A DNA stretch of 63,389 nt, filler included, from Basidiobolus ranarum (taxonomy: Eukaryota), in NCBI GenBank assembly GCA_040143965.1. It is 52 parts of 52 records of this genome, joined end to end, with 100 filler letters (N's around TTAATTAATTAA, not from the genome) between each part and the next. Parts side by side here need not be neighbours in the genome. Positions count along the whole stretch, not along the records: positions 41,588 to 42,706 come from JASJQH010013223.1; 51 more parts are not named here. One strand, 5' to 3'. Of this stretch, positions 11,039 through 58,529 are shown in pieces. Below the pieces are notes generated by a model. The model was not told where the DNA came from. It searched no databases and was given only the letters and a program-made list of their open reading frames with translations. Numbering within the stretch: position 1 is the first letter of the stretch; each line of letters begins with the position of its first letter. The translations under genes were made by a program, and so were the position numbers.

Positions 11039-11876
11039 GTCAGATATACTGGCAAAAAAGCTTAATTCCATCATGGAACCAGGTACACCAGTTGGATGAG
11101 TGCTAAATTTGGAGGTTTATCCAATACCTGGCACTTCTCAACAAGCCAAGACTGCAGCAAATAAAGCTCACTGCTCTCCAATCTCAACTGGTACTTTTCA
11201 AAGTGTTGAAGTTAGCCTCAAGGTTAAAGGCAAGCAAAAAGCTGCACAACAACCACAAAGCACCCTCAGTAGTGTCACACTACAAGGACATACAAAAATA
11301 GTCAAAGTGCTTGAGGAGTATGTTTGAAAGTGTGAAGGGAAAAATGCATTGCAAGTATGTAGAAAGTGGCTTCAGAAGAAGAACATTCAACTTGACATTC
11401 AGTCTGGTGTTGACCATGCATATATCTGGGAAGAACTTAATACAGAGTGGCACAATATTTACGGTATCTGCCAGATAGTTGGAAGAATGATGATTCAGCA
11501 ACATTAAGGCAATGGTGGGCTTTGAGGGAGATATTGATACAAACTTGTGATGAATATGAGCTAAACCTTGGGTATGAAGAACTCTGTAAAAATATTCAGG
11601 AGAATAGATCAAAGAGACTAGGGATTTTGGAGGTGACCAATTAGTGATCAAGTGGTAAATGTTTTGCACATGTATTGATCCATAGTTCTCTGAGATTGTA
11701 GCCAATCATGCGCAACTATTTTGTGAGATCTTGAAATTTCACTCCTGATGCTGAAAAAATTGATCAAAATCATATTTAACTTGACAATTTTATGATGGTA
11801 AGTAAATGGTCAATTGCAAATGGATTAAAATTGTGATAGTTTTCCTGCAATAAAAATCCTCAAATTTCTGTTAGGG
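11039..11876 (+). mobile_element. CMC element ORF2 3' part and left terminus ending TTTCTGTTAGGG
   Basis: Same block and same terminus in 7 contigs, each followed by a different flank. Confidence 0.85.
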
Positions 11877-12782: not shown

Positions 12783-13388
12783 TTAACTTGTACGTGGCCT
12801 CTTAAACACAGTTGTTGTTTCATCATCATCATTATCATCATCTTTTTCTTCTTCTTCAATTAAACTAGGTTCATTGGAACGATTATGCGTAATGGCTGGC
12901 TCATCTGAGTGTGGATCACTACATCCAGATATTGATATATCTACTTGGCTAATCCTTTGTTTGTCAGACCTATTGCTCCCAATTTCTTCCTCATTGTGAG
13001 TCTGATCAGCAGAGGCATCATCACCAACAAGTGTTGTATTAAGCAATAAATTGCTAGTCTGCACGCCATTCAAAATATCTAATAACATGGTTCTTGTATC
13101 TGAATGAAATCTACTGTCTATATAGCCTTCTAGCTTGGTAATTCTTTGCCTAGCCTCAGTTAGGGATCCCTGTAGCTGCTGAATTTGTCTACACATGTCC
13201 AGAAGAATTTTGTGACGTACTCCCTCTCGATACTCAGTTAATGTTTCCTTGACATGCGCGTAGGCTTCAGCCAAACGATCATTTGTCACAGTTGTAATTG
13301 TACTATGTTCTGAAGTTAGCTGACTTTCTGGAATACTTTGCAAACGTGTTTGCCTATCACTTCTGCCTCTCCTACCACGGCCCCTTCC
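12783..13388 (-). CDS. 3' part of a hypothetical host protein (GR-rich stretch, coiled coil, acidic tail, KRPR end)
   Basis: Frame stays open to the contig end (GRGRGRRGRSDRQTRLQSIPES...), about 200 codons, CpG retained. Confidence 0.6.
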   Translation of the reverse strand, partial: GRGRGRRGRSDRQTRLQSIPESQLTSEHSTITTVTNDRLAEAYAHVKETLTEYREGVRHKILLDMCRQIQQLQGSLTEARQRITKLEGYIDSRFHSDTRTMLLDILNGVQTSNLLLNTTLVGDDASADQTHNEEEIGSNRSDKQRISQVDISISGCSDPHSDEPAITHNRSNEPSLIEEEEKDDDNDDDETTTVFKRPRTS

Positions 13389-23278: not shown

Positions 23279-24400
23279 AGCGCTTTTTGAATGGCATTGA
23301 AGTTTTCAGATGGTAAACTTGGTGTAATGAAATTGCTTAGAAAGAGCTTATAATTAACCAAAATTGTCATCCATTACTGGAAATATCTTGTAAATTCCTT
23401 GATGACTCATCTGTGACACCATCTCATAATCAGCTGATGATATTGATGGGCTATACCTAAAATACCGCCCTAATGTGGGAGGTGTTCTTTTTTCTACAAA
23501 ATCCTTCTCATGCCGCAACACAAATGTTTAAAGAAGCCCTGCTATTATTGTTGCAAATTCTTGTGCTATGAAAGCTGGAGGCTTCATAGAAAAAATAATC
23601 ACAAGCACAGTCACTGTACAAAGCCACCAGCTGCACAAAGCCTGGTGTATAACAACAGTAATAAGTGCACTAAATTGACTTTAGTTTTGCCTATTGAGTC
23701 CACTGACTGTAGTTTGCCTCAAAGTTTTGGTAACACTGCCAAAAGTCAAGATACTGTGGAGTTACCACAGTTATATGACCAGAATGATGTAGGTCAAAAT
23801 GCAACTTTGGTTGAACCAGTAAGTCCAGACAACTTTGAGGACTTGCTGCTAGATGTTGACCTTGGTTATTCCAGTATGGATGGTAGTATATCAGAAGTTG
23901 AAGAAGAAGATGATGGTTTTGTTATGGACTCTTTGTTATCAGCAAACATTAGTCCACTCATAACACTTACAGTAAAGGAAGCAGCTTTGATTATTGAGGA
24001 GTGGAGAGTTCAATCCAATCTTAGCAACCAGGTGTTTATTGGTTTTGTAACACTTTTGCCACAGTTGATTGGCAACTGTTGCTTGCCACAGACCTGGTAC
24101 AAGTGGAAAACACTTGGCAATCATATGACTTATAATCCTTCAGTAATTAAACTGCCTTCATGTCCAAATGGTTGTTGGGCTTTCACCGGTGATCTGAAAA
24201 ACCTAAAGTCATCTACTATTTGCACACAATTGGCAATCACTGAATCAGGTAAGTATTGCTCATATTTGGCTTACATAGCAATGATTCCCCATCTTAAAGT
24301 TTTGATGAAATCACCCAAATTTAGATCATTGATCCAATATCAATGTACTCACCATAAAGCTGATGGTATTACCAATATACTTGATGGATATCACTACCAG
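23279..24400 (+). mobile_element. CMC element: ORF2 start (minus strand), divergent spacer and transposase 5' part (ATG 23510)
   Basis: Open 297 codons: Cys/His-rich N-terminus, acidic linker, CPNGC motif and YI..IPHLK of Transposase_21-associated proteins. Confidence 0.9.
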
Positions 24401-24896: not shown

Positions 24897-24920
24897 CCCT
24901 AAGCCTAACCCTAACCCTAA
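24897..24920 (+). repeat. Short telomere-like tract CCCTAA GCCTAA CCCTAA CCCTAA
   Basis: Read directly; abuts a CMC transposase fragment. Confidence 0.6.
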
Positions 24921-33049: not shown

Positions 33050-34169
33050 GGTAACTATTTTATTAATGCTAATATTATTATATGTATTGGTGACACTCCT
33101 GCCATCAGTAAACTTGAAGGTTTTTGCAGGCACAATGCACTATCTTGCTGTAGCTTTTGTCAAATCAATGGAGTTAACTCTATCAGGCATATGCATTACT
33201 ACTGTCAAAATACAACACCAAACCCCATGATTTTACCATCAACAACTGGGCCAGATTTCAATATAATCACTGATATCAATTGACCAAAAGGTCAGTCTAA
33301 CATCAAACTTGATACTAGCTGTAAGCCTAAGACTATATTGCTAAAGGGGATCAGCTGGAGCCAGAGCTTCCTATTAGACACAATGCACTAACTATTGAAC
33401 AAGATTTCAATACTACTTACTCAGCTATATAGTGGAAATTTCAATATGAATGAGCCATTCAAGATAGAATCAAGTTTGAATCAACTGGGAAAATGCTTGA
33501 AAACATCAAGATACTGTCACATTTTACCAGGACTCCCATCAATATCCACTCATCCAGGCATTTATTCAAATGCAAAGACTGAAAATATTGGATTTGTATG
33601 TATTCAAGTAAAATGTTGAAAAGATTTCTGCCTGATAAGTATTAGCAACACTGGGAGTAGTTTGTGGATATTTTTAATATATTCTTATGGCATCAACTCA
33701 CATTGTCAGATCTCAGGCAGATAGAGTGATTATGCAAAGATTTTGTAAATGGATATGAAAAACTTTATTACAGATTTATGGAAGAAATACTGAATTTATG
33801 CCAGTATTCAATACATTCCCAGCTGCATCTTTCACAATGCGTAGAGATTGTAGGCCCTTGCTATGTATTCTAGGAGTTCCCAATGGAGTGCACCTGTGGT
33901 GAAATGATGCTCCATGTAAAATTGTCAGTATTACCATATGCTAATCTGATTAATAATGTGTCAGCAAAATCAGTGATGGATGTAAAGCAATGGGTTAAAG
34001 AGACTCCAGAGTATATTAACCTTCCAACAAAGGGATCTTTTCAATGTCTTCATGAGATTTCACATTGTTCAAGCACAATAGTAGCAACAAAACCCAATCC
34101 ATGGACACGGAGTAAGTATCTCTATAATTTGGACTTTGCTTGTGTAATAATGAGACAGTATTTCTAGGA
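33050..34169 (+). mobile_element. CMC transposase middle to 3' region
   Basis: GDTPAISKL, EFPMECTCGEMM..VKLSVLPYANL. Confidence 0.9.
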
Positions 34170-40368: not shown

Positions 40369-41310
40369 CCTGGGTTTTTGCAAGCAAATGGCAATTTTGC
40401 TAGTATAGGCCTATTCATGACACATCTTGAAAATGCATGCATTTATCAACTTAGAAAAGAAAGAAAAGCAGCTAAAGAAGTACTCAGGGAGCAGGAAGTT
40501 AGTAAGCCCAAGAGAGAAGCAAAGCAGCCAGTGAGTTTAGGCTCTACCATCCTACCAACCAAATTCTTCACCCCATTGTGTAGATATGTATTTGCAGAGT
40601 CAATTATACCAGCAGATATATTGGCAAAAAGGCTAAATTTTACTATGGAACCAAGTTTATTGGTTAGAGGAGTGCTAAATTTGGAAGTTTCTCTACCAGA
40701 ATGTATAAAAATATTAAAAGTGCTTGTGGAGTATTTTCAAAAGTATGAAGGGATAAATGCAGTGCATGTATGCAGAAAGTGGCTTCAAAAGAAGAGCATT
40801 TTATTTGACATTTAGTCTGGTGTTTTACCATGCAGATATCTGGGAAGAACTTAATAAAGTGTGGCACAATATTGCAAGGTATCCACCAGTTATCTGTAAC
40901 AAAGTTGATTCAGCAACATTAATACAATGGTGGGCTTTGATGGAGTTATTAATACAAACTTGTGTCAAATATGAACTTAACCTTTGGTATGAAGAACTAT
41001 ATTAAATTAATCATGACAATATATCAAAGAAACCAGGAATTTCAAAGGTGACAAAATTGCTTTCAACTGGTAAATGTGTAACATTTGAGTTACATTTTTC
41101 AAACATGTGTTGATTCAGAGTTTTGGGACATTGTAGCCAATTGTGTGCAACTATTTTGCAAGATCTTGTAATTTTACTCCTAAAACTGAAAAAATTGGTT
41201 AAAATCAAATCTAACTTGACAATTTTATGATGGTAAGTAAATGGTCAATCCACAACGGATTGAAATTGTGATGGCTTTCTTACTATCACAATCCTCAAAT
41301 TTCTGTTGGG
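40369..41310 (+). mobile_element. CMC ORF2 3' half and left terminus
   Basis: Homologous to 18386..19159 and 11039..11876; ends TTCTGTTGGG, followed by inverted transposase sequence to ~41470. Confidence 0.85.
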
Positions 41311-41587: not shown

Positions 41588-42339
41588 TGGTTTGCCGGTT
41601 TTCCTATGAGATTTCTACTTTCATGTGCCCAAGCAATTTTGGGTCTTTGTGTAGGCTTAATGGTCCAACACATATTCTGCTCTGCTAGGTTGTCACGGTG
41701 ACATTCATATGTATGGTGTGGGATTGATTGAAATCCCATATGAGTACAGACAGAGTGAGCAGCATGTTGCCATAGCTAAAGTACAGCATTCTGATGGTCT
41801 TGTATCATTGTTGAGTGACTCTCCAACTGTTGACTAGTTGCTTCTAAAGACTGCATCAATTGCAATATTGTGGCTATATTGCTTGTCATAGCCTCTATAG
41901 CAATTTCATAGTTTTTACTTATGCTTGCATACAAATCATTGCGGTGTTCTGCCTGCAATTCCCTTATTGTGATAATTCTATCCAATTTTTCTACCAATGG
42001 TTGTTCAATAGTGGGCAAAGTAGCCATTTGGGAAGTTGATGGCCTTGACGGTGTTTTGGTTGAACTTTGCTCAACTATTGATTTACTACATAATTTGGGG
42101 ATTACAATTTCTTCTCTTTCACTATTGCTTGAAAGGAGCACATCTGGTAAATTGATTGATGCTTCATCATTGCTTGAGTTAGTTTCTGGCATATTAATGC
42201 CTTCCAAAGTGGATAGTGGAGCACTAGACTGCTCAACAATTAAGTCCTCTGTTCTTGCTGGTTTTTTTCCTTTTGTGCCAGCAGGCTTTAGCTTGGAAGC
42301 TAATTTTGACTTAGATTTTGAACACTTTCTGAATGGCAT
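41588..42339 (-). mobile_element. CMC ORF2 N-terminal part (MPFRKCSKSKSK...), unknown function
   Basis: 187-aa ORF plus read-through; head-to-head with the transposase ATG at 42552; second copy at 57415..57923. Confidence 0.8.
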
Positions 42340-42551
42340 TGAAATTTTCAGATGGTAAATTTGGTGTCAAGAAGTTGGTTTGAAACAGCTTATAATAAAC
42401 CAAAATTACCATCCAATACCAGAAAAATCTTGTAAATTCCCTGATGACTCATCTTTGACACTGTCTCAGAATCAGCTGATGATATTGATGGGCTATACCT
42501 AAGATACCACCCTTACGTGGGAGGTGTTCTTTTTTCTTCAATATCCTTCTC
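42340..42551. promoter_or_regulatory. Candidate bidirectional promoter of the CMC element (212 bp)
   Basis: Lies between divergent ATGs in three copies; conserved palindromes GATGACTCATC and ATCAGCTGAT. Confidence 0.55.
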
Positions 42552-42706
42552 ATGCCACATCACAAACATTTAAAGAAGCACTGCTACTACTGTCACAAAT
42601 TCTTGTGCTATGAAAGCCAGAGGCTTCATAGAAAAAATAATCACAAGCACAGTCACTGTACAAAGCCACCAGCTGCACAAAGCCTGGTGTATAACAACAG
42701 TAATAA
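42552..42706 (+). mobile_element. CMC transposase N-terminus
   Basis: MPHHKHLKKHCYYCHKFLCYES, same as 23510. Confidence 0.88.
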
Positions 42707-44025: not shown

Positions 44026-45144
44026 TTACTACAGTTATATGACCAGAATGATGTAGGTCAAAATGCAACTTTGGTTGAACCAGTAAGTCCAGACAACTTT
44101 GAGGACTTGCTGCTAGATGTTGACCTTGGTTATTCCAGTACCAATGGTAGTATATCAGAAGTTGAAGAAGAAGATGATGGTTTTGTTACAGAGTCCTTGT
44201 TATTGGCAAACATTATTCCACTCATAACACTTATAGCAGAGGAAGCAGCTTTGATTATTGAGGAGTGGAGAGTTCAATCCAATCTTAGCAACCAGGTTTT
44301 ATTGGTTTTCTTACATTTTTACCACAGTTGATTGGCAACTGTTGCTTGCCACAGACCTGGTACAAGTGGAAAACACTTGTCAATCATATGACTTATAATC
44401 CTTCAGTAATTAAACTGCCTTCATGTCCAAATGGTTGTTTGGCTTTCACCAGTGATCTGAAAAACCTGAAGTCATGTACTGTTTGCACACAATTGGCAAT
44501 CACTGAATCAGGTAAATATAGTTCATATTTGGCATACATACCATTGATTCCCCACCTTGGAGTTTTGATGAAATCACCCAAATATAGATCATTGATCCAC
44601 TACCAAAGTACTCACTATAATGCTGATGGTATTACCAACATACTTGATGGATATCACTACCGGAGTCTGAAAAGTCAAGGTTTCTTTGAGAACATGTATG
44701 ATCATGCATTTGCATTGGCTCTGCATGGTTTCTCATTAAACAAATATACCATTGGAAAGGTTTGCTGGCCAATAATTTTAATCAACTTAAATCTTCCTCC
44801 TTCTGAACAGTATAAGAGTCAAAATATTTTGATACTATGCATCATATCTGGACCTAAATCACTAGTGCTTATAGATAGCTTCTTGGAGCCTTTGATTGCC
44901 AAATTTGAATGGTTATCTAATGGGGTTCAGATGGGTGAATATTTTATTAAAGCTAATATCATTGTATGTATTGGTGACACTCCTGCCATCAGTAGACTTG
45001 GAGGTTTTTGCAGGCACAATGCACTATCTTGGGGTAAATTTTGTCAAATCAATGGAGTTTACTCTAACAGGCATACGCATTACTACTATCCAAATACAAC
45101 ACTAAACTCCATGATTTTACTATCAAGAGCCCGGTCAGATTTCA
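44026..45144 (+). mobile_element. CMC/EnSpm transposase core, best-preserved copy
   Basis: CPNGC..CTVC, L(D>H)GF, CWPIILINLNLPP, ISGPK, DSFLEPLI, CIGDTPAI, HNALS..KFC: Transposase_21 (PF02992)-type motifs. Confidence 0.93.
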
Positions 45145-45244: not shown

Positions 45245-45998
45245 AATCAATCAGCATTGTAAGTGCTTTCTCTACTAAAGTCCTATTCATCCTTTCTGCA
45301 ACTCCATTTTGTTCTGCAATATATGAAATAGAAAATTGCTGCTGAATTCCCTTTTCTTGATAAAAGCTAGTCATGGCTTCATTGCTAAATTCAGTTCCAT
45401 TATCACTGCATAGGTATTTGATTTTTCTTCCTGTTATGGTTGTGACCATTGCTTCATATATCTTACAATATTGAAACATTTCTCCTTTGCTCAAAAGAAG
45501 ATATGAAACTGTGAAGTGAGATTTATCATCAATAAAGATGAGTAAATATCATTGCTTACTAGGTGTCAGAGTTTGCCTTGGGCCACATAAGTCTGTATCA
45601 ATAAAATTTAATAAATCTTTGTTTTTGCTAGCTCCTTCTTTTGGAAATGGCTTTCTGGAGATTTTCCCTTAAATACAGCTTTCACATTTAGTAATATCTG
45701 AGGGCTTAAGATCCATTCCAGTACACAGGCTATTTTTATATAATAGTTTCACACTATTATAGTTTAGATGACCCAAGTGCTGATGCCAAGTCATCAAGTT
45801 TCCAGAAGTAATTGTTGCAAAGTTAGAAACAGTCTCAGTTATTGGTGCAATATCCAGGTGATATAGATTCCCAATTCTTGTTCCAGTTGCTACTATCAAG
45901 TCCATTGATTTGTATATGGTTGCTTTTCCACAGCTGAATTTGACATCATACTGTTTCTTTTCAATTGTTCCAATTAAAAACAGATTTGTTGTAAATGA
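45245..45998 (-). mobile_element. Copia pre-integrase and integrase core
   Basis: WHQHLGH, CESCI, DLCGP, SDNGTEF, QNGVAERMNRTL. Confidence 0.95.
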
Positions 45999-46362
45999 CC
46001 CTAACAAAAATAAAATCAATTTGATCAGGATCAGATTCACTCTTCTAAATTGCAAAACCATCAGAGAACCATCACAACACTGGTGCCTTGTATTCTGCCA
46101 GGGATCCCTGGCAAAAATAAAATTGAATTAATCCGGATTGGATCCACTCTTCTAAATTGCAACAGGCTTTGTTGCTGTCATTGTGCTCAAACAATGTGAA
46201 AGCCTGTGAGCACATTGAAAAGAGCCCTTTGTTGGAAGGTTAATATACTCTGGAGGTTCTTTAACCCATTGCATTACATCCATCACTGATTTTGCTGATA
46301 CATTATTAAGCAGATTAGCATATGGTAATACTGACAATTTCACATGAAGCATCATTTCACCA
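45999..46362 (-). mobile_element. Two stacked CMC right termini (45999 and 46106), the second fused to transposase interior
   Basis: CCCTAACAAAAATAAAATC at 45999 and CCCTGGCAAAAATAAAATT at 46106; transposase sequence resumes ~46163. Confidence 0.82.
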
Positions 46363-47680: not shown

Positions 47681-48770
47681 TTGCCAATTGTGTGCAAACA
47701 GTACATGACTTCAGGTTTTTCAGATCACTGGTGAAAGCCAAACTACCATTTGGACATGAAGGTAGTTTAATTACTGAAGGATTATAAGTCATTCAATTGA
47801 CAAGTGTTTTCCACTTGTACCTGGTCTGTGGCAAGCAATAGTTGACAATCAACTGTGGTAAAAGTGTAAGAAAACCAATAAACACCTGGTTGCTAAGATT
47901 GGATTGAACCCTCCACTCCCCAATAATCAAAGCTGCTTCCTTTACAGTAAGTGTTATGAGTGGACTAATATTTGCCAATTACAAAGAGTCCATAACAAAA
48001 CTGGTGTCTTCTTCTTCAATTTCTGAAATGCTACCATTAGTACTGGAATAACCAAGGTCAACATCTAGCAGCAAGTCCCCAAAGTTGTCTGGACTTATTG
48101 GTTCAACCAAACTTGCAGTTTGACGTACATCATTCTGGTCATCTGGCCATGCTAACTCCACAGTATCTTGACTTTTGGTAGTATTACCAAAACTTTGAGG
48201 CAAACTACAGTCAGTGGACTGATTAGGCAAAATTAAAGTCAATTTAGTGTACTTATTGGACTTGTTCTCTGTGATAGTGCCAGATTGTGCTGTATATATC
48301 ATATTGGATAAATTATTCTAAAATTTATGCGGCACAATTTGGCACTATTCTTTACCCTCTGGCACAATCAATTTTAATCACACTTAATGTAATATATTGA
48401 TCTAAGGTCCAATAAATCCTGGCACAATGGAACAAGTCCATTACTGTTGTTATACACCAGGCTTTGTGCAGCTGGTGGCTTTGTACAGTGACCGTGCTTG
48501 TGATTATTTTCTCTATGAAGCATCCAGCTTTCATAGCACAAGAATTTGCAACAATAATGGCAGGGCTTCTTTAAATGTTTGTGTTGCAGCATGAGAAGGA
48601 TATTGTGGAAAAAAGAACACCTCCCATGTAAGGGTGGTATTTTTTGTATAGCTTATCAATATCATCAGCTGATTCTAAAACAGTGTCACAGATGAGTCAT
48701 CTGGGGATTCACAAGATATTTCCGGTAAAGGATGGCAATTTTGGCTTTTTATAAGCTGTTTGGTAGCATT
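47681..48770 (-). mobile_element. CMC spacer and transposase 5' part, interrupted by a MITE
   Basis: Reverse complement of 23330..24230. Confidence 0.9.
48258..48439. mobile_element. 182-bp MITE with 10-bp TIR GGACTTGTTC and 3-bp TSD ATT
   Basis: att|GGACTTGTTC...GAACAAGTCC|att; empty site in the copy near 23660; second copy at 53428..53609. Confidence 0.9.
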
Positions 48771-48898: not shown

Positions 48899-49058
48899 TG
48901 TGTATAAAGAAAGTCCCAGTCAGATCGCGCACCAAATCCTGGAAGGGAAGAGAGGTTCTACCATCAGTACCTTCAATACTAGTGATTGGTCGGAAGATTT
49001 GTCCTTCGGTTGTTGCAAGGGACAAACCTAAGATCAAAATTGAACCATTAATCTTCAT
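48899..49058 (-). CDS. 5' end of a putative secreted protein (MKINGSILILGLSLATTEGQIFRP...)
   Basis: Signal-peptide-like N-terminus; TATAAATA at 49165..49158; CpG-retaining upstream DNA. Confidence 0.55.
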
Positions 49059-50116
49059 TATGGACCTATCAAGTGGGTGATGAAAAGGTGATGGAGAACT
49101 GAGGAGCGCGAGTGGACGACTTGCTAATGGCAAAGTTCAATATTCTCTGATCATGGCTATTTATACTCTCCAGGCTAGATACTCTCAAACAATCTTGAGC
49201 TTTGAAACAATGTATAGTGGTTGTATTTGATAGAGAATGCAGGATAGGTCAATCATGAAGATCGCATACAATGCACTCCGTGTCGTCTTGCCTTCAGTCG
49301 GTCTTCGATGCCCTACTAAACGTTACCAGATAGTTCTCATACATTTTAAAATCATCAAACATCACTTATAAGTGAGACGTTCATGGATTGGAGAAGAAAC
49401 TCTCTCCTAATTATGATCGCACTTCCTGACAGCTGATCTTCCCACACCTGTTTGTGAGAGAGGAGCATATGACTTTAGTGGATGCTTGTATGACAAGAGG
49501 AGAGGCCCCTGAAAGGTCATCTAGGCATGCTCTCCGCAGAAGCCTCACCAATACCCAATCTAATTGAAGGACATGCGATGCGTAAACCTTTTTTTAGATC
49601 AACATGCAACCGTAACGATGCCGAACTGAAACTTGTTTGGATCATTCCTGACTGCTCTTTGAAATAAGCCATCTATCTGAAATAGCTACGATTCAAGGAT
49701 GAACTACTGGCGCATGAAAGCATTATCCTATTTAGAGACTTGATCGCCGACTATTCTTTGCCTCTTGGTATACTTGGGGACGAAATCAAACACATTGTAC
49801 ATTAGTATCATCTCTAATATCTATACCTCTACCAGAATTATGCTATAGCATCCCGCACCAGGAATCTTCCTTAGCGCTCTACAGACTCTCAATTCTCATA
49901 AATTTGTGAGTTGCATCCCAGCAATGGGTTATGATGTACCTCAAATTTCTGTTAGGGCAAACATTAGTCCACTCATAACACTTACAGTAAAGGAAGCAGC
50001 TTTGATTATTGAGGAGNNNNNNNNNNNNNNNNNNNNNNNNNNNNNNNNNNNNNNNNNNNNTTAATTAATTAANNNNNNNNNNNNNNNNNNNNNNNNNNNN
50101 NNNNNNNNNNNNNNNN

Positions 50117-53427: not shown

Positions 53428-53609
53428 TGACTTGTTCCATGGTGCCAGGATTTTTTAAACCTTGGATCAATATATTAGAGTAAATGTGATTGAAATTGAT
53501 TATGCCAGAGGGTGCTCAATAGTGCCAAATTTGGCCACATAAATTTTATAATACTTTATCCAATATGATATAGACAGCACAATCTGGCACTATCCCAGAG
53601 AACAAGTCC
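53428..53609. mobile_element. Second copy of the 182-bp MITE, opposite orientation
   Basis: (T)GACTTGTTC...GAACAAGTCC, same length and colinear with 48258..48439; TSD not clean. Confidence 0.85.
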
Positions 53610-53766
53610 CATATATTTAATCACACTATAGGAAATTAACTTCAACATTTTAACCAAAAATATAAANNNNNNNNNNNNNNNNNNNNNNNNNNNNNNNNNN
53701 NNNNNNNNNNTTAATTAATTAANNNNNNNNNNNNNNNNNNNNNNNNNNNNNNNNNNNNNNNNNNNN

Positions 53767-56198: not shown

Positions 56199-56957
56199 AG
56201 ATTAAGTACCTTTGTAATTAGTCTAATTTGCTTGTGTGATAATCTGATGGTATTTTTAGGAAAGCTGCAAGACAGACTTCTTGGTGAGATAGATGGAGAT
56301 ATGCAGTATTATTGTTTTAGCCATGGCATAATCTATTCAAGCAATGACACATCTACTTGTGGCAGGACATTTGTTGCTTGCAAGCCAGGGATATATTGGC
56401 TTAATTCTTTATGGGAATTTGCCAAAATCCAAGAGCTTATTCTCATTGTGAATGGTAACAAGAGTCAGCTCTTTGCCAAGTGTCAGTGCTACTCAAAATT
56501 TCAGATGTTTTGCAGCATTTACACCATTAGTTTGCTCTTAGAGCATATTGATGTTGTTGAGTTATGTCCAATCAGTCAAGTATGTGCATATGTAGGGACT
56601 AAACACAACAAGATTAGTGTATTTTCTGATTCTCATTATGGCTGGAATACAAAGCCTAAAATATCAAAATAAAGGCATGTGTATTAATTTGAATTCCTAC
56701 AGCAGTAAACCTGTAAGTTGCCTTTCAAAAATTATATTTTGGCAAAAATTGCTGGATATTGAATAATGCATGCCCAATTCAAGTATCAATATTTTAACAT
56801 GTATGAATACCATTAAAATACCATCAAGAAACCACTGTCACACCATCAAAATCCCCGGCAGAATGCAAGCCAACAATACTGTGATGGTTCTAAGATGGAT
56901 TTGCTATTTTGGAGGATGGATCCAATCTGGATCAAATCAATTTTATTTTTTTAAGGG
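56199..56957 (+). mobile_element. CMC transposase 3' end and right terminus
   Basis: ORF stop at 56672, then 285 bp to ATTTTTTTAAGGG. Confidence 0.9.
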
Positions 56958-57414: not shown

Positions 57415-58529
57415 CTGTTGACTAGTAGCTTCCAAATGCTGCATAAATTGCAATATTGAGGCATTATTGCTTGTCATGGCCTGTATAGCAACTTTGTAGT
57501 TTTTACTTCTGATTGCATACAAATCACTACAGTGATATGCCTGCAACTACCTTGTAAGAATAATATCCAAATTTTCTAAGGAGGGCTATTCTGTAGTGGG
57601 CAAAGTAGCCATTTTAGAAGTTGATGGTCTTGATGGTATTTTGGTTCAACTTTGCTCAAGTTTTGATTTAATATCTAATTGGGGGATTACAATCTCTTCA
57701 CTTACACTATTATGGAAACAAACACATCTGGTAAGTTGATTTAGGCTTCATCATTACTTGAGTTAGTGTCTGGCATGTTAATGCCTTCCAAAGTGGAGAG
57801 TGGATCACTAGACTGCAGATCAATTAAGTCCTCTCTTCTTGCTGGTTTTTTTGCTTTTGTGCCCACAGGCTTTGGCTTGGAAGCCAACTTTGATTTATAT
57901 TTTGAATCCTTTTTGAATGGCATTGAAATTTTCAGATGGTAAACTAGGTTTAATCAAATTGCTTAGAAACAGCATATATTAAACCAAAATTGCAATCCAT
58001 TACTGGAAACATCTGGTAAATTCCCCAATGACTCATCTGTGACACCATCTTAGAATCAGCTGATGGGATTGAAGGGCTATACCTAAAATACCACCCTGAC
58101 CTTGGAGGTGTTCTTTTTTCTACAATATCTTCTCATGCTGGAACACAAATGTTTGAAGATATCCTGCTATTGTTGTCAAAAATTCTTGTGCTATGAATCC
58201 AGGTGGCTTCATAAAAAAAAATAATCACAAGCACAGTTACTGTACAAAGCCACCAGCTGCACAAAGCCTGTTTTCTAACAACAGTAACAAGTGCACTAAC
58301 TCAACTTAAGCTTTGCCCATTAAGTCCACTGACTGTAGTTTGCCTCATAGTTTAGGTAACACTGCTAAATGTTCAGATACTGTGGAGTTACCACAGCTTT
58401 ATGACAAGAACAACATAGGTCAAAATGTAACTTTGGTCAAACTAGCAAGTCCAGACAACTTTGAGGACTTGCTGCTAGATGTTGACCTTGGTTATTCCAG
58501 TACTGATCATGGTATGTCAGAAGTTGAAG
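57415..58529. mobile_element. CMC ORF2 N-terminus (-, ATG 57923), spacer, transposase N-terminus (+, ATG 58135)
   Basis: Colinear with 41826..42706 and 23279..23900. Confidence 0.9.

Follow-up and report, generated by a model that had tools for sequence, protein, structure and literature searches.

The contig at positions 41588 to 42706 carries the start of a transposase gene and, upstream of it on the opposite strand, the start of a second reading frame (ORF2). It raises the question of whether the two are the centre of a single transposon whose genes are read outward from a common spacer, each towards its own terminus. We addressed this question in the whole 63,389-nucleotide stretch of Basidiobolus ranarum DNA that was analysed (the window), which consists of 52 contigs of 1115–1128 bp, arranged by length and joined by N/TTAATTAATTAA spacers. 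The contigs are AT-rich, with GC contents of 31–41%, and strongly depleted in CpG (observed/expected 0.17). Many Copia- and Gypsy-type fragments lie across them, and all-against-all blastn joins 38 of the 52, retroelements included, in one repeat graph.

To delimit the family, the contigs were compared by blastn (E ≤ 1e-8) with ten reference contigs, seven of the right arm and three of the left block. Family sequence was found in 21 of the 52 contigs and accounts for 18,607 of 58,289 bp (32%), which agrees with the initial annotation's estimate of about 21 contigs; the count takes in c41, which has only 61 bp plus a 19-bp terminus of the family, and leaves out c31, with its 94-bp fragment of ORF2. 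In-frame stops interrupt 10 of the 14 contigs having transposase HSPs, and one of the transposase contigs, c37, has a frameshift; because of these stops no intact copy is seen in the window. Intact transposase and ORF2 frames were not found together in one copy among the window contigs, which are only 1.1 kb each, and none of the 52 contigs holds both ends of one copy. Taking the evidence below together, we consider it likely that these sequences represent a high-copy, mostly dead family of cut-and-paste CMC/EnSpm (Transposase_21) elements laid out as left TIR, ORF2 pointing left, spacer, transposase pointing right, and right TIR.

The transposase gene

The transposase was assembled from the following segments, together with further copies that overlap them.

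23510..24400, plus strand: N-terminal 297 codons of the transposase, open (c20); no stops over a 239-aa HSP to the related protein P0001
42552..42706, plus strand: transposase start in c35, MPHHKHLKKHCYYCHKFLCYESQRLHRKNNHKH..., with a C2H2-like Cys/His pattern
44026..45144, plus strand: core of the transposase (c37), containing the Transposase_21 domain; one frameshift
33050..34111, plus strand: distal part of transposase exon 1 (c28), ending ...NPWTQ; putative GTAAGT 5' splice site at 34112
56260..56672, plus strand: putative transposase exon 2 (c47), ...KLQDRLLGEID..YYCFSHG..., about 137 codons plus stop

Contig c20 overlaps c37 over 637 bp (93.6% identity), c37 overlaps c28 over 211 bp (88.6%), c28 overlaps c8 over 940 bp (83%), and c47 is overlapped by both c8 and c4 (86–88%). 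P0001, a related protein of 698 aa from an ENA assembly, shares 86% identity with the c37 frame, and its alignments to c20, c37, c28, c8 and c4 are colinear. The blastn overlaps and this colinear mapping confirm that overlapping copies tile one transposase ORF, as had been proposed from the sequence.

The Pfam Transposase_21 domain (PF02992) was detected in c37 with an E-value of 9.2e-13 (48.3 bits, against a cut-off of 28.6) and also in c30 (6.8e-9) and P0001 (1.9e-16), so that the cut-off is passed in all three and the CMC/EnSpm-type identity first assigned to the family holds. The Atlas clusters nearest to the transposase (score 0.97) carry the same domain, and the protein resembles the usual Transposase_21 proteins found in arthropods, Basidiomycota and Mucoromycota. 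Motif I (LDG...WPI), defined as D-G-x3-[FY]-x7-9-W-P-[ILV] in the part of PMC1636069 that deals with it, is present as ALALDGFSLNKYTVGKACWPI in P0001; its Asp is kept in c30 and is replaced by His in c37. A C-R-F-C motif occurs in P0001, c28 and c5. Searches with P0001 gave 588 pattern matches in a metagenome scan, none of them related, and no match among the viral contigs scanned or in a PDB sequence search.

At the N-terminus, c20 is the sole transposase-bearing contig that is open over its whole frame (309 codons), and the frame of c20 and c35 extends about 70 codons beyond the N-terminal end of the P0001 model. Read by eye, this N-terminus has the C2H2-like form MP(Q/H)HK...C-x2-C...H-x4-H; Pfam returned no match for the pattern.

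At the other end of the gene, the GTAAGT that follows ...NPWTQ is kept in c16, c28 and c21 and is GTATGT in c8. About 65 bp past GTAAGT lies a ...TTTTTAG acceptor, beyond which the frame is restored into ...KLQDRLLGEID..YYCFSHG.... From the conserved GTAAGT...YAG and the continuity of the frame we infer one intron in the transposase. The putative second exon, for which Pfam gave no match, runs to a stop at 56670-56672 in c47. The transposase would accordingly be spread over two exons of about 738 and 137 aa; the resulting ~875 aa are close to the roughly 900 aa that the initial annotation had given, and the positions it named for the transposase start (23510) and the right terminus (56957) are exact.

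ORF2 and the divergent junction

The features that bear on the second gene are these.

41588..42339, minus strand: 5' part of ORF2 (c35), MPFRK..., 187 codons, an in-frame TAG, then 62 codons to the contig edge
42340..42551, no strand: 212-bp spacer between the divergent start codons (c35), from an alignment of four copies
57415..58529, no strand: second copy with the same layout (c48), 83.9% identical to c35 over 881 bp
23297-23295, minus strand: ORF2 start codon upstream of the transposase in c20

In c35 the ORF2 ATG lies at 42339-42337 and the in-frame TAG at 41776-41778, both on the minus strand; P0003, a B. ranarum copy, has Glu (E) at the place of the TAG. The c35 frame contains one stop in 250 codons, versus 9–23 stops in the other five frames, and its 196-codon open stretch was reached in 1 of 1000 dinucleotide shuffles. 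In c48 the two start codons are at 57923-57921 (ORF2, minus) and 58135 (transposase, plus), and ORF2 has decayed, with one frameshift and at least four stops. Only the first six ORF2 codons are present in c20, while c40, when reversed, supplies the spacer and the transposase start. A second ORF on the opposite strand some 210 bp upstream of the transposase had been reported for three contigs, and we find it in c35, c48 and c20, across a spacer of 212 bp.

The junction of ORF2, spacer and transposase is kept in four independent copies at 84–90% identity. Aligned across c35, c48, c20 and reversed c40, the spacer has a mean column identity of 84% and is as conserved as its coding flanks. Within it, ATGACTCAT (42444-42452 in c35) is invariant in four of four copies; the window holds five matches to this sequence, four of them within spacers, where 1.15 would be expected. 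We presume a resemblance of ATGACTCAT to a bZIP (Gcn4/AP-1) site. The 212-bp spacer is a candidate bidirectional promoter, which would drive both genes.

ORF2 itself appears to be confined to this element. A phmmer search of 1.84 billion representatives returned two matches, both of them B. ranarum copies of the same element, and gene predictions for ORF2 exist in B. ranarum copies of 72–77% amino acid identity. Comparison with longer proteins revealed no homolog, and a Pfam search that included TnpA-type families gave no match. PDB sequence searches returned only HSP82 rows for alignment A2, with E-values of 0.44–0.55, and none for the C-terminal alignment (A3). The best Atlas score for ORF2, 0.81, is at noise level, and the Myb-like rows found there are a lead only. 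AF2, given three sequences, predicts that residues 1–113 are disordered and that residues 114–187 form one 74-residue helix (pLDDT 87–97), and the C-terminal region (alignment A3) was modelled with a pLDDT of 49, too low for the model to be used. The disordered N-terminus is basic and includes the Lys-rich start KSKSKLASKLKPAGTKGKKPAR. We also calculated pairwise dN/dS for ORF2 (0.46, p 0.0065), and rejected it as evidence of selection because off-frame and non-coding controls elsewhere were equally low (0.27–0.51). By analogy with TnpA and the ORF2 proteins of plant CACTA elements, we tentatively propose that ORF2 may encode an element-specific nuclear accessory protein that associates with itself through its helix and aids the recognition or pairing of the transposon ends.

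Termini, left-end block and overall layout

Sequences from both ends of the family are present in the window, along with one non-coding element that has the same terminus.

40369..41310, plus strand: left-end block in ORF2 sense (c34), comprising the 3' coding part of ORF2, a subterminal region and the terminus ...TTTCTGTTGGG at 41310
11039..11876, plus strand: left-end block (c10), in which the 3' part of ORF2 ends ...SKRLGILEVTN, with its stop at 11642-11644
56673..56957, plus strand: right subterminal region and terminus (c47), ...TTTTTTTAAGGG, with ACTGTGATGGTT at 56878-56889
48899..49957, plus strand: non-coding element with an unrelated body (c41) and the 19-bp terminus CCTCAAATTTCTGTTAGGG, inside a transposase copy

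Each arm terminates in CCCTAACARAAAT, a 13-bp inverted repeat that the two have in common. The left blocks (c34, c10, c16, c19, c27 and c42 reversed) end ...CAAATTTCTGTTAGGG, and the transposase arms (c47, c21 and c38 reversed) end ...ATTTTATTTTTGTTAGGG, the right terminus in c21 and c38 reading ...TTTTTGTTAGGG. Written as an inverted repeat, the TIR is CCCTAACA(G/A)AAAT, 13 bp long and imperfect, and the element termini read CCCTAACA...TGTTAGGG in eight exact and three diverged copies. A search for CCCTAACARAAAT gave the eight exact matches plus the three diverged real termini, and with up to two mismatches 17 matches versus 5.5 expected. It is at these TIRs that the DDE transposase would excise and reinsert the element.

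The two arms also have a subterminal motif in common. ATTGTGATGGTT occurs nine times versus 0.83 expected, five times in left blocks, at a distance of about 35 bp to the end, and four times in right arms, where the distance is about 68 bp; it faces the terminus in every case. TRTGATGGT gave 15 matches versus 1.7 expected, 11 of which are subterminal. A shared motif of this type points to each end of the element. Beyond this single shared motif, no dense subterminal repeat array in the style of plant CACTA elements was found.

All termini of the family in the window are of either the left or the right type. What lies beyond the left-type termini varies by contig; in five of seven cases it is the family's own transposase arm, met at varied positions and in varied orientations. 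Because the flanks vary in this way, the left-type termini mark nested insertions and not deletion junctions. One such case is c10, whose terminus (...CAAATTTCTGTTAGGG at 11876, after a 232-bp subterminal region) adjoins a transposase fragment of another copy. The flank of the c41 element is identical at 60 of 60 positions to c20 (positions 664–723). Since the body of c41 is unrelated, its terminus shows that the 19-bp sequence is not exclusive to the ORF2 block. Two further candidates were rejected. The sole metagenome match to the 19-bp terminus, L001, is GC-rich, has no blastn similarity to any contig and is a chance match; and the idea that the terminal 113 bp of the right arm form an independent MITE was dropped, since a Copia LTR insertion in c21 and a rearranged copy in c38 account for most of it.

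The left-end block contains a reading frame of about 280 codons directed towards the terminus, ...VLNLEV...IWEELNTEWHNI.GY.PDSWKNVDSATLIQWWAL...YEELYKNIQENISKRLGI.KVTN, which closes about 230 bp from the terminus at a stop common to c10, c19 and c42. In c34, ATTGTGATGGCT lies at 41265-41276 in the subterminal region, and, in comparison with c10 and c16, this copy lacks about 160 bp at position 325. The only proteins matched by the block ORF are four B. ranarum hypothetical proteins.

As the initial annotation had stated, no contig in the window bridges the 41588 edge of ORF2 to the 40369 edge of the block, and searches that included a word size of 7 and tblastx found none. Two gene models from another assembly join the parts. 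P0003 (KAK9674757.1; B. ranarum, 189 aa, on a 2613-bp contig) contains 155 aa of ORF2 followed by a 33-aa tail, ...EHLHTEWPNITGYLPDRWKNVDSAMLIQ; on the ORF2 strand, this tail aligns with the left block of c16 (E 8e-6) as well as with those of c10 and c34. P0006, a partial B. ranarum model on a 1284-bp contig, begins with 20 aa of antisense transposase (c37 451>392, E 3e-7; also c20, c5, c30 and c40) and continues directly into the block ORF (c34 103-321, E 3e-26). Both junctions are internal to the two partners, and their orientation is as the layout predicts; they have the form expected of internally deleted derivatives of a single element. Because P0003 and P0006 are automatic gene models on short contigs, and one of the two models skips sequence (a deletion or a called intron), we regard them as good and not as conclusive support; in a repeat family, a chimeric contig from short reads could conceivably lie behind them. 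A third model, P0004, extends the c34 frame by 20 aa upstream without overlapping the c35 tail, and because these extra residues do not reach that tail, the gap between c35 and the block is at least 60 bp. The order of segments in a further model, P0007, is without explanation.

In the layout that these pieces suggest, ORF2 (more than 500 codons) would lie on the minus strand between ~230 bp of subterminal sequence next to the left TIR and the 212-bp spacer; to the right of the spacer would come the two-exon transposase, on the plus strand, then ~285 bp of subterminal sequence and the right TIR. The parts add up to at least 5.1 kb, plus the gap of at least 60 bp, and the full element is probably somewhat over 5 kb; the ~5 kb first estimated was near, if probably a little short. 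The order of parts and their orientations stand as initially drawn, supported by the junction in four copies, the shared termini and the two gene models, and the left-TIR block can be placed in the same element on the strength of its shared terminus and subterminal motif and of P0003 and P0006.

Two other readings have to be weighed against this one. The left-end block (of the c34, c10 and c16 type) might be a separate, perhaps non-autonomous family that shares only its TIR with the transposase-bearing element, which we consider unlikely; on that reading the left arm proper of the autonomous element would lie outside the window. Such a family would account for the want of a window contig bridging block and ORF2, for the identical 19-bp terminus on the unrelated body of c41, and for the five of seven left-type termini that abut transposase fragments in varied ways, as a nesting independent element would. 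Against it stand P0003, which joins ORF2 to the block at an internal point, and P0006, which does the same with antisense transposase. A long frame in the direction of ORF2 inside the block also argues against it, as does the finding of only two terminus types in the window with a subterminal motif common to both.

It likewise seems improbable to us that ORF2 is non-functional, being either a low-complexity frame that is open by chance or a decayed captured fragment, and that the transposase alone suffices. A fortuitous frame would hardly show one stop in 250 codons against 9–23 in the other frames, run on for some 280 codons in the block to a stop common to three copies, and keep its start codon and spacer in four. 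The orphan status of ORF2 (two matches among 1.84e9 representatives and none among longer proteins) would fit such a frame, but second proteins of the CACTA type evolve fast and lack detectable homologs, as described for the elements treated in PMC1636069. The predicted disorder of the first 113 residues, the pLDDT of 49 for the C-terminal part, the inconclusive dN/dS and an Atlas score (0.81) at noise level are the other points on the side of a non-functional ORF2.

We thus retain the reading of one element with two divergent genes. It is possible, though we would not presume it, that this element represents a Zoopagomycota-specific CMC lineage absent from libraries and was perhaps recently active; the hallmarks of such a lineage would be the CCCTAACA terminus, a compact bidirectional promoter at the centre and, in place of TnpA, a coiled-coil orphan protein exceeding 500 aa. 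The ordinary look of the transposase, the CCC-starting TIRs already described for Transposase_21 elements and the published expansions in Basidiobolus do not speak for the undescribed lineage that the initial annotation considered. The suggestion of recent activity comes from c41 and c20, which with their 60/60 flank resemble one site with and without an insertion.

Comparison with known elements

The superfamily, a CCC-type terminus, an unrelated second gene and the expansion in this host are all precedented (PMC5751038, PMC1636069, PMC12730594, PMC4158355), and the transposon is an element of a known superfamily and not a new kind of element. In the published literature we found neither a divergent gene arrangement for a CMC element nor an element-level description of a CMC-EnSpm/CACTA transposon in Basidiobolus. 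The finding opens no long-standing question. What it offers is element-level anatomy (termini, subterminal motif, two genes, an intron and a non-autonomous relative) for an expansion that has so far only been counted. This anatomy is useful for repeat masking and gene annotation because several B. ranarum 'hypothetical proteins' are pieces of the transposon, and a compact two-gene relative of CACTA elements could serve as a test bed for the role of the fast-evolving second protein.

The expansion itself is known from Muszewska et al. (2017, PMC5751038), who reported that CMC-EnSpm elements have greatly expanded in Basidiobolus. Their host group and superfamily are those of the present family, and the 32% share of the window taken by the family fits their report. 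In the part of that paper that treats the expansion, transposase domains are counted without element structure, TIRs or a second ORF, which are given here.

Among fungal relatives of EnSpm, Plavaka elements of the CMCT clade (Kojima 2025, PMC12730594) are likewise multi-gene DNA transposons. According to the sections of that work on termini, Plavaka elements end in TGT..ACA (A) or CATCA..TGATG (B), whereas the ends here read CCCTAACA..TGTTAGGG, and CA..TG termini with 2–5-bp TSDs are typical of the CMCT clade. Compared with Plavaka, no TET/JBP gene was seen in the transposon described here. The same source describes gene order and orientation as variable among multi-gene fungal DNA transposons.

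Plant En/Spm (CACTA) elements resemble the present one in having a DDE transposase of the Transposase_21 type, a 13-bp TIR, a similar size and a fast-evolving second protein-coding gene; the cut-and-paste mechanism (PMC4158355) is common to both. The first five TIR bases, CCCTA here and CACTA in plant En/Spm, are one base apart. EnSpm/CACTA elements in the strict sense have a 3-bp target-site duplication, and their termini read CACTA...TAGTG (or CAC..GTG), in contrast to the CCCTAACA...TGTTAGGG found here. Full CACTA elements carry a transposase plus an ORF2 of unknown function in the description of Buchmann et al. (2014, PMC4158355), and Spm is described in PMC1636069 as a single transcription unit that gives tnpA to tnpD. 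The second gene of CACTA elements is co-directional with the transposase or alternatively spliced, whereas ORF2 here lies on the opposite strand across a 212-bp spacer.

The TRC elements, SmTRC1 of Schistosoma and its counterparts in Tribolium and Aedes (DeMarco et al. 2006, PMC1636069), resemble the Basidiobolus element in several respects in the sections that characterize the group. They are elements of ~5 kb with a Transposase_21 transposase and motif I. Their TIRs are characterized there for animals only, where they are flanked by 2-bp repeats, the TIRs of fungal copies not being definable. In TRC elements a single unit yields the accessory proteins through alternative splicing, in contrast to the divergent gene found here; the accessory product is nevertheless one without detectable homologs, as is ORF2. 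The combination that marks the TRC group in that source, a Transposase_21 transposase with a TIR starting CCC, is also that of the Basidiobolus element, and the Tribolium TRC TIR, CCCTAGTA..., starts with the same CCCTA.

Insertions within and beside the transposon

The contig c41 carries a non-coding body that is unrelated to the CMC/EnSpm (Transposase_21) transposon family despite an identical 19-bp terminus. The 60-bp flank of c41 matched positions 664–723 of c20, the contig with an open N-terminal part of the transposase, with 100% identity, and c20 is uninterrupted there. These two contigs may represent filled and empty versions of one site, in which case the non-autonomous relative would have been mobilised recently; alternatively, the identity of the flank may reflect an overlap of contig ends. 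A MITE was located within the transposon copy of c40; set against c20, where this site is empty, the insertion shows a 3-bp duplication, ATT.

Non-autonomous elements
48899–50016 (c41): non-coding body, 41.5% GC, ending in the 19-bp terminus of the family, together with its 60-bp flank
48259–48444 (c40): MITE, ~186 bp, with 10-bp TIRs GGACTTGTTC / GAACAAGTCC
about 53429–53613 (c44): second copy of the MITE

Retrotransposons were also present, and the long open frames of the Copia-like and Gypsy-like contigs contained reverse-transcriptase, integrase and gag-like sequence. Judged by sequence, the window shows several putative families of LTR retrotransposons. Some of them are nested with the DNA transposon; in c21, for example, 5 bp lie between an LTR end and a 113-bp right-end unit (the right end being the transposase side).

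LTR retrotransposons
Copia-like: c3, c6, c12, c23, c33, c36, c38, c39, c46, c50, c51
Gypsy-like: c43, c52

Rearranged and telomere-like ends

24897–24920 (c21): four telomere-like CCCTAA units, adjoining a truncated transposase arm
45995–46165 (c38), minus strand: rearranged right end

The 12-mer of the telomere-like repeat in c21 had 3 matches relative to 0.17 expected, and the transposon TIR likewise opens with CCCTAA. This arrangement may be a coincidence or may mark a healed break. At the right end of c38, a 58-bp partial end terminating in TGCCAGGG is followed by AT and then by a full 113-bp end beginning with CCCTGGCA, such that both pieces form the palindrome TGCCAGGG-AT-CCCTGGCA. An internal deletion joins the transposase arm to this rearranged end.

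CpG depletion and sequences outside the family

Across the whole window, CpG observed/expected was 0.17 and TpG+CpA was 1.32, and among copies of the family C>T and G>A changes were, per site, twice as frequent as T>C and A>G. These patterns fit heavy methylation and deamination of cytosines. Therefore, a plain majority consensus of the transposon family will have lost CpGs.

12786–13388 (c11), minus strand: open-ended frame, 201 codons
22570–22845 (c19): transposase-like piece, found by tblastn with P0001, a related transposase of 698 aa

The c11 frame is RG-rich at its start, helical in the middle and acidic in its tail. It displayed no similarity to the transposon family, and its sole Pfam row was a sub-threshold one, Fib_alpha (E 0.0015, 19.1 bits versus a cut-off of 29.9). 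The c19 piece shared only 40% identity with P0001 in tblastn and contained 5 stops; on its sequence, it points to another putative CMC family of this genome, one of greater divergence.
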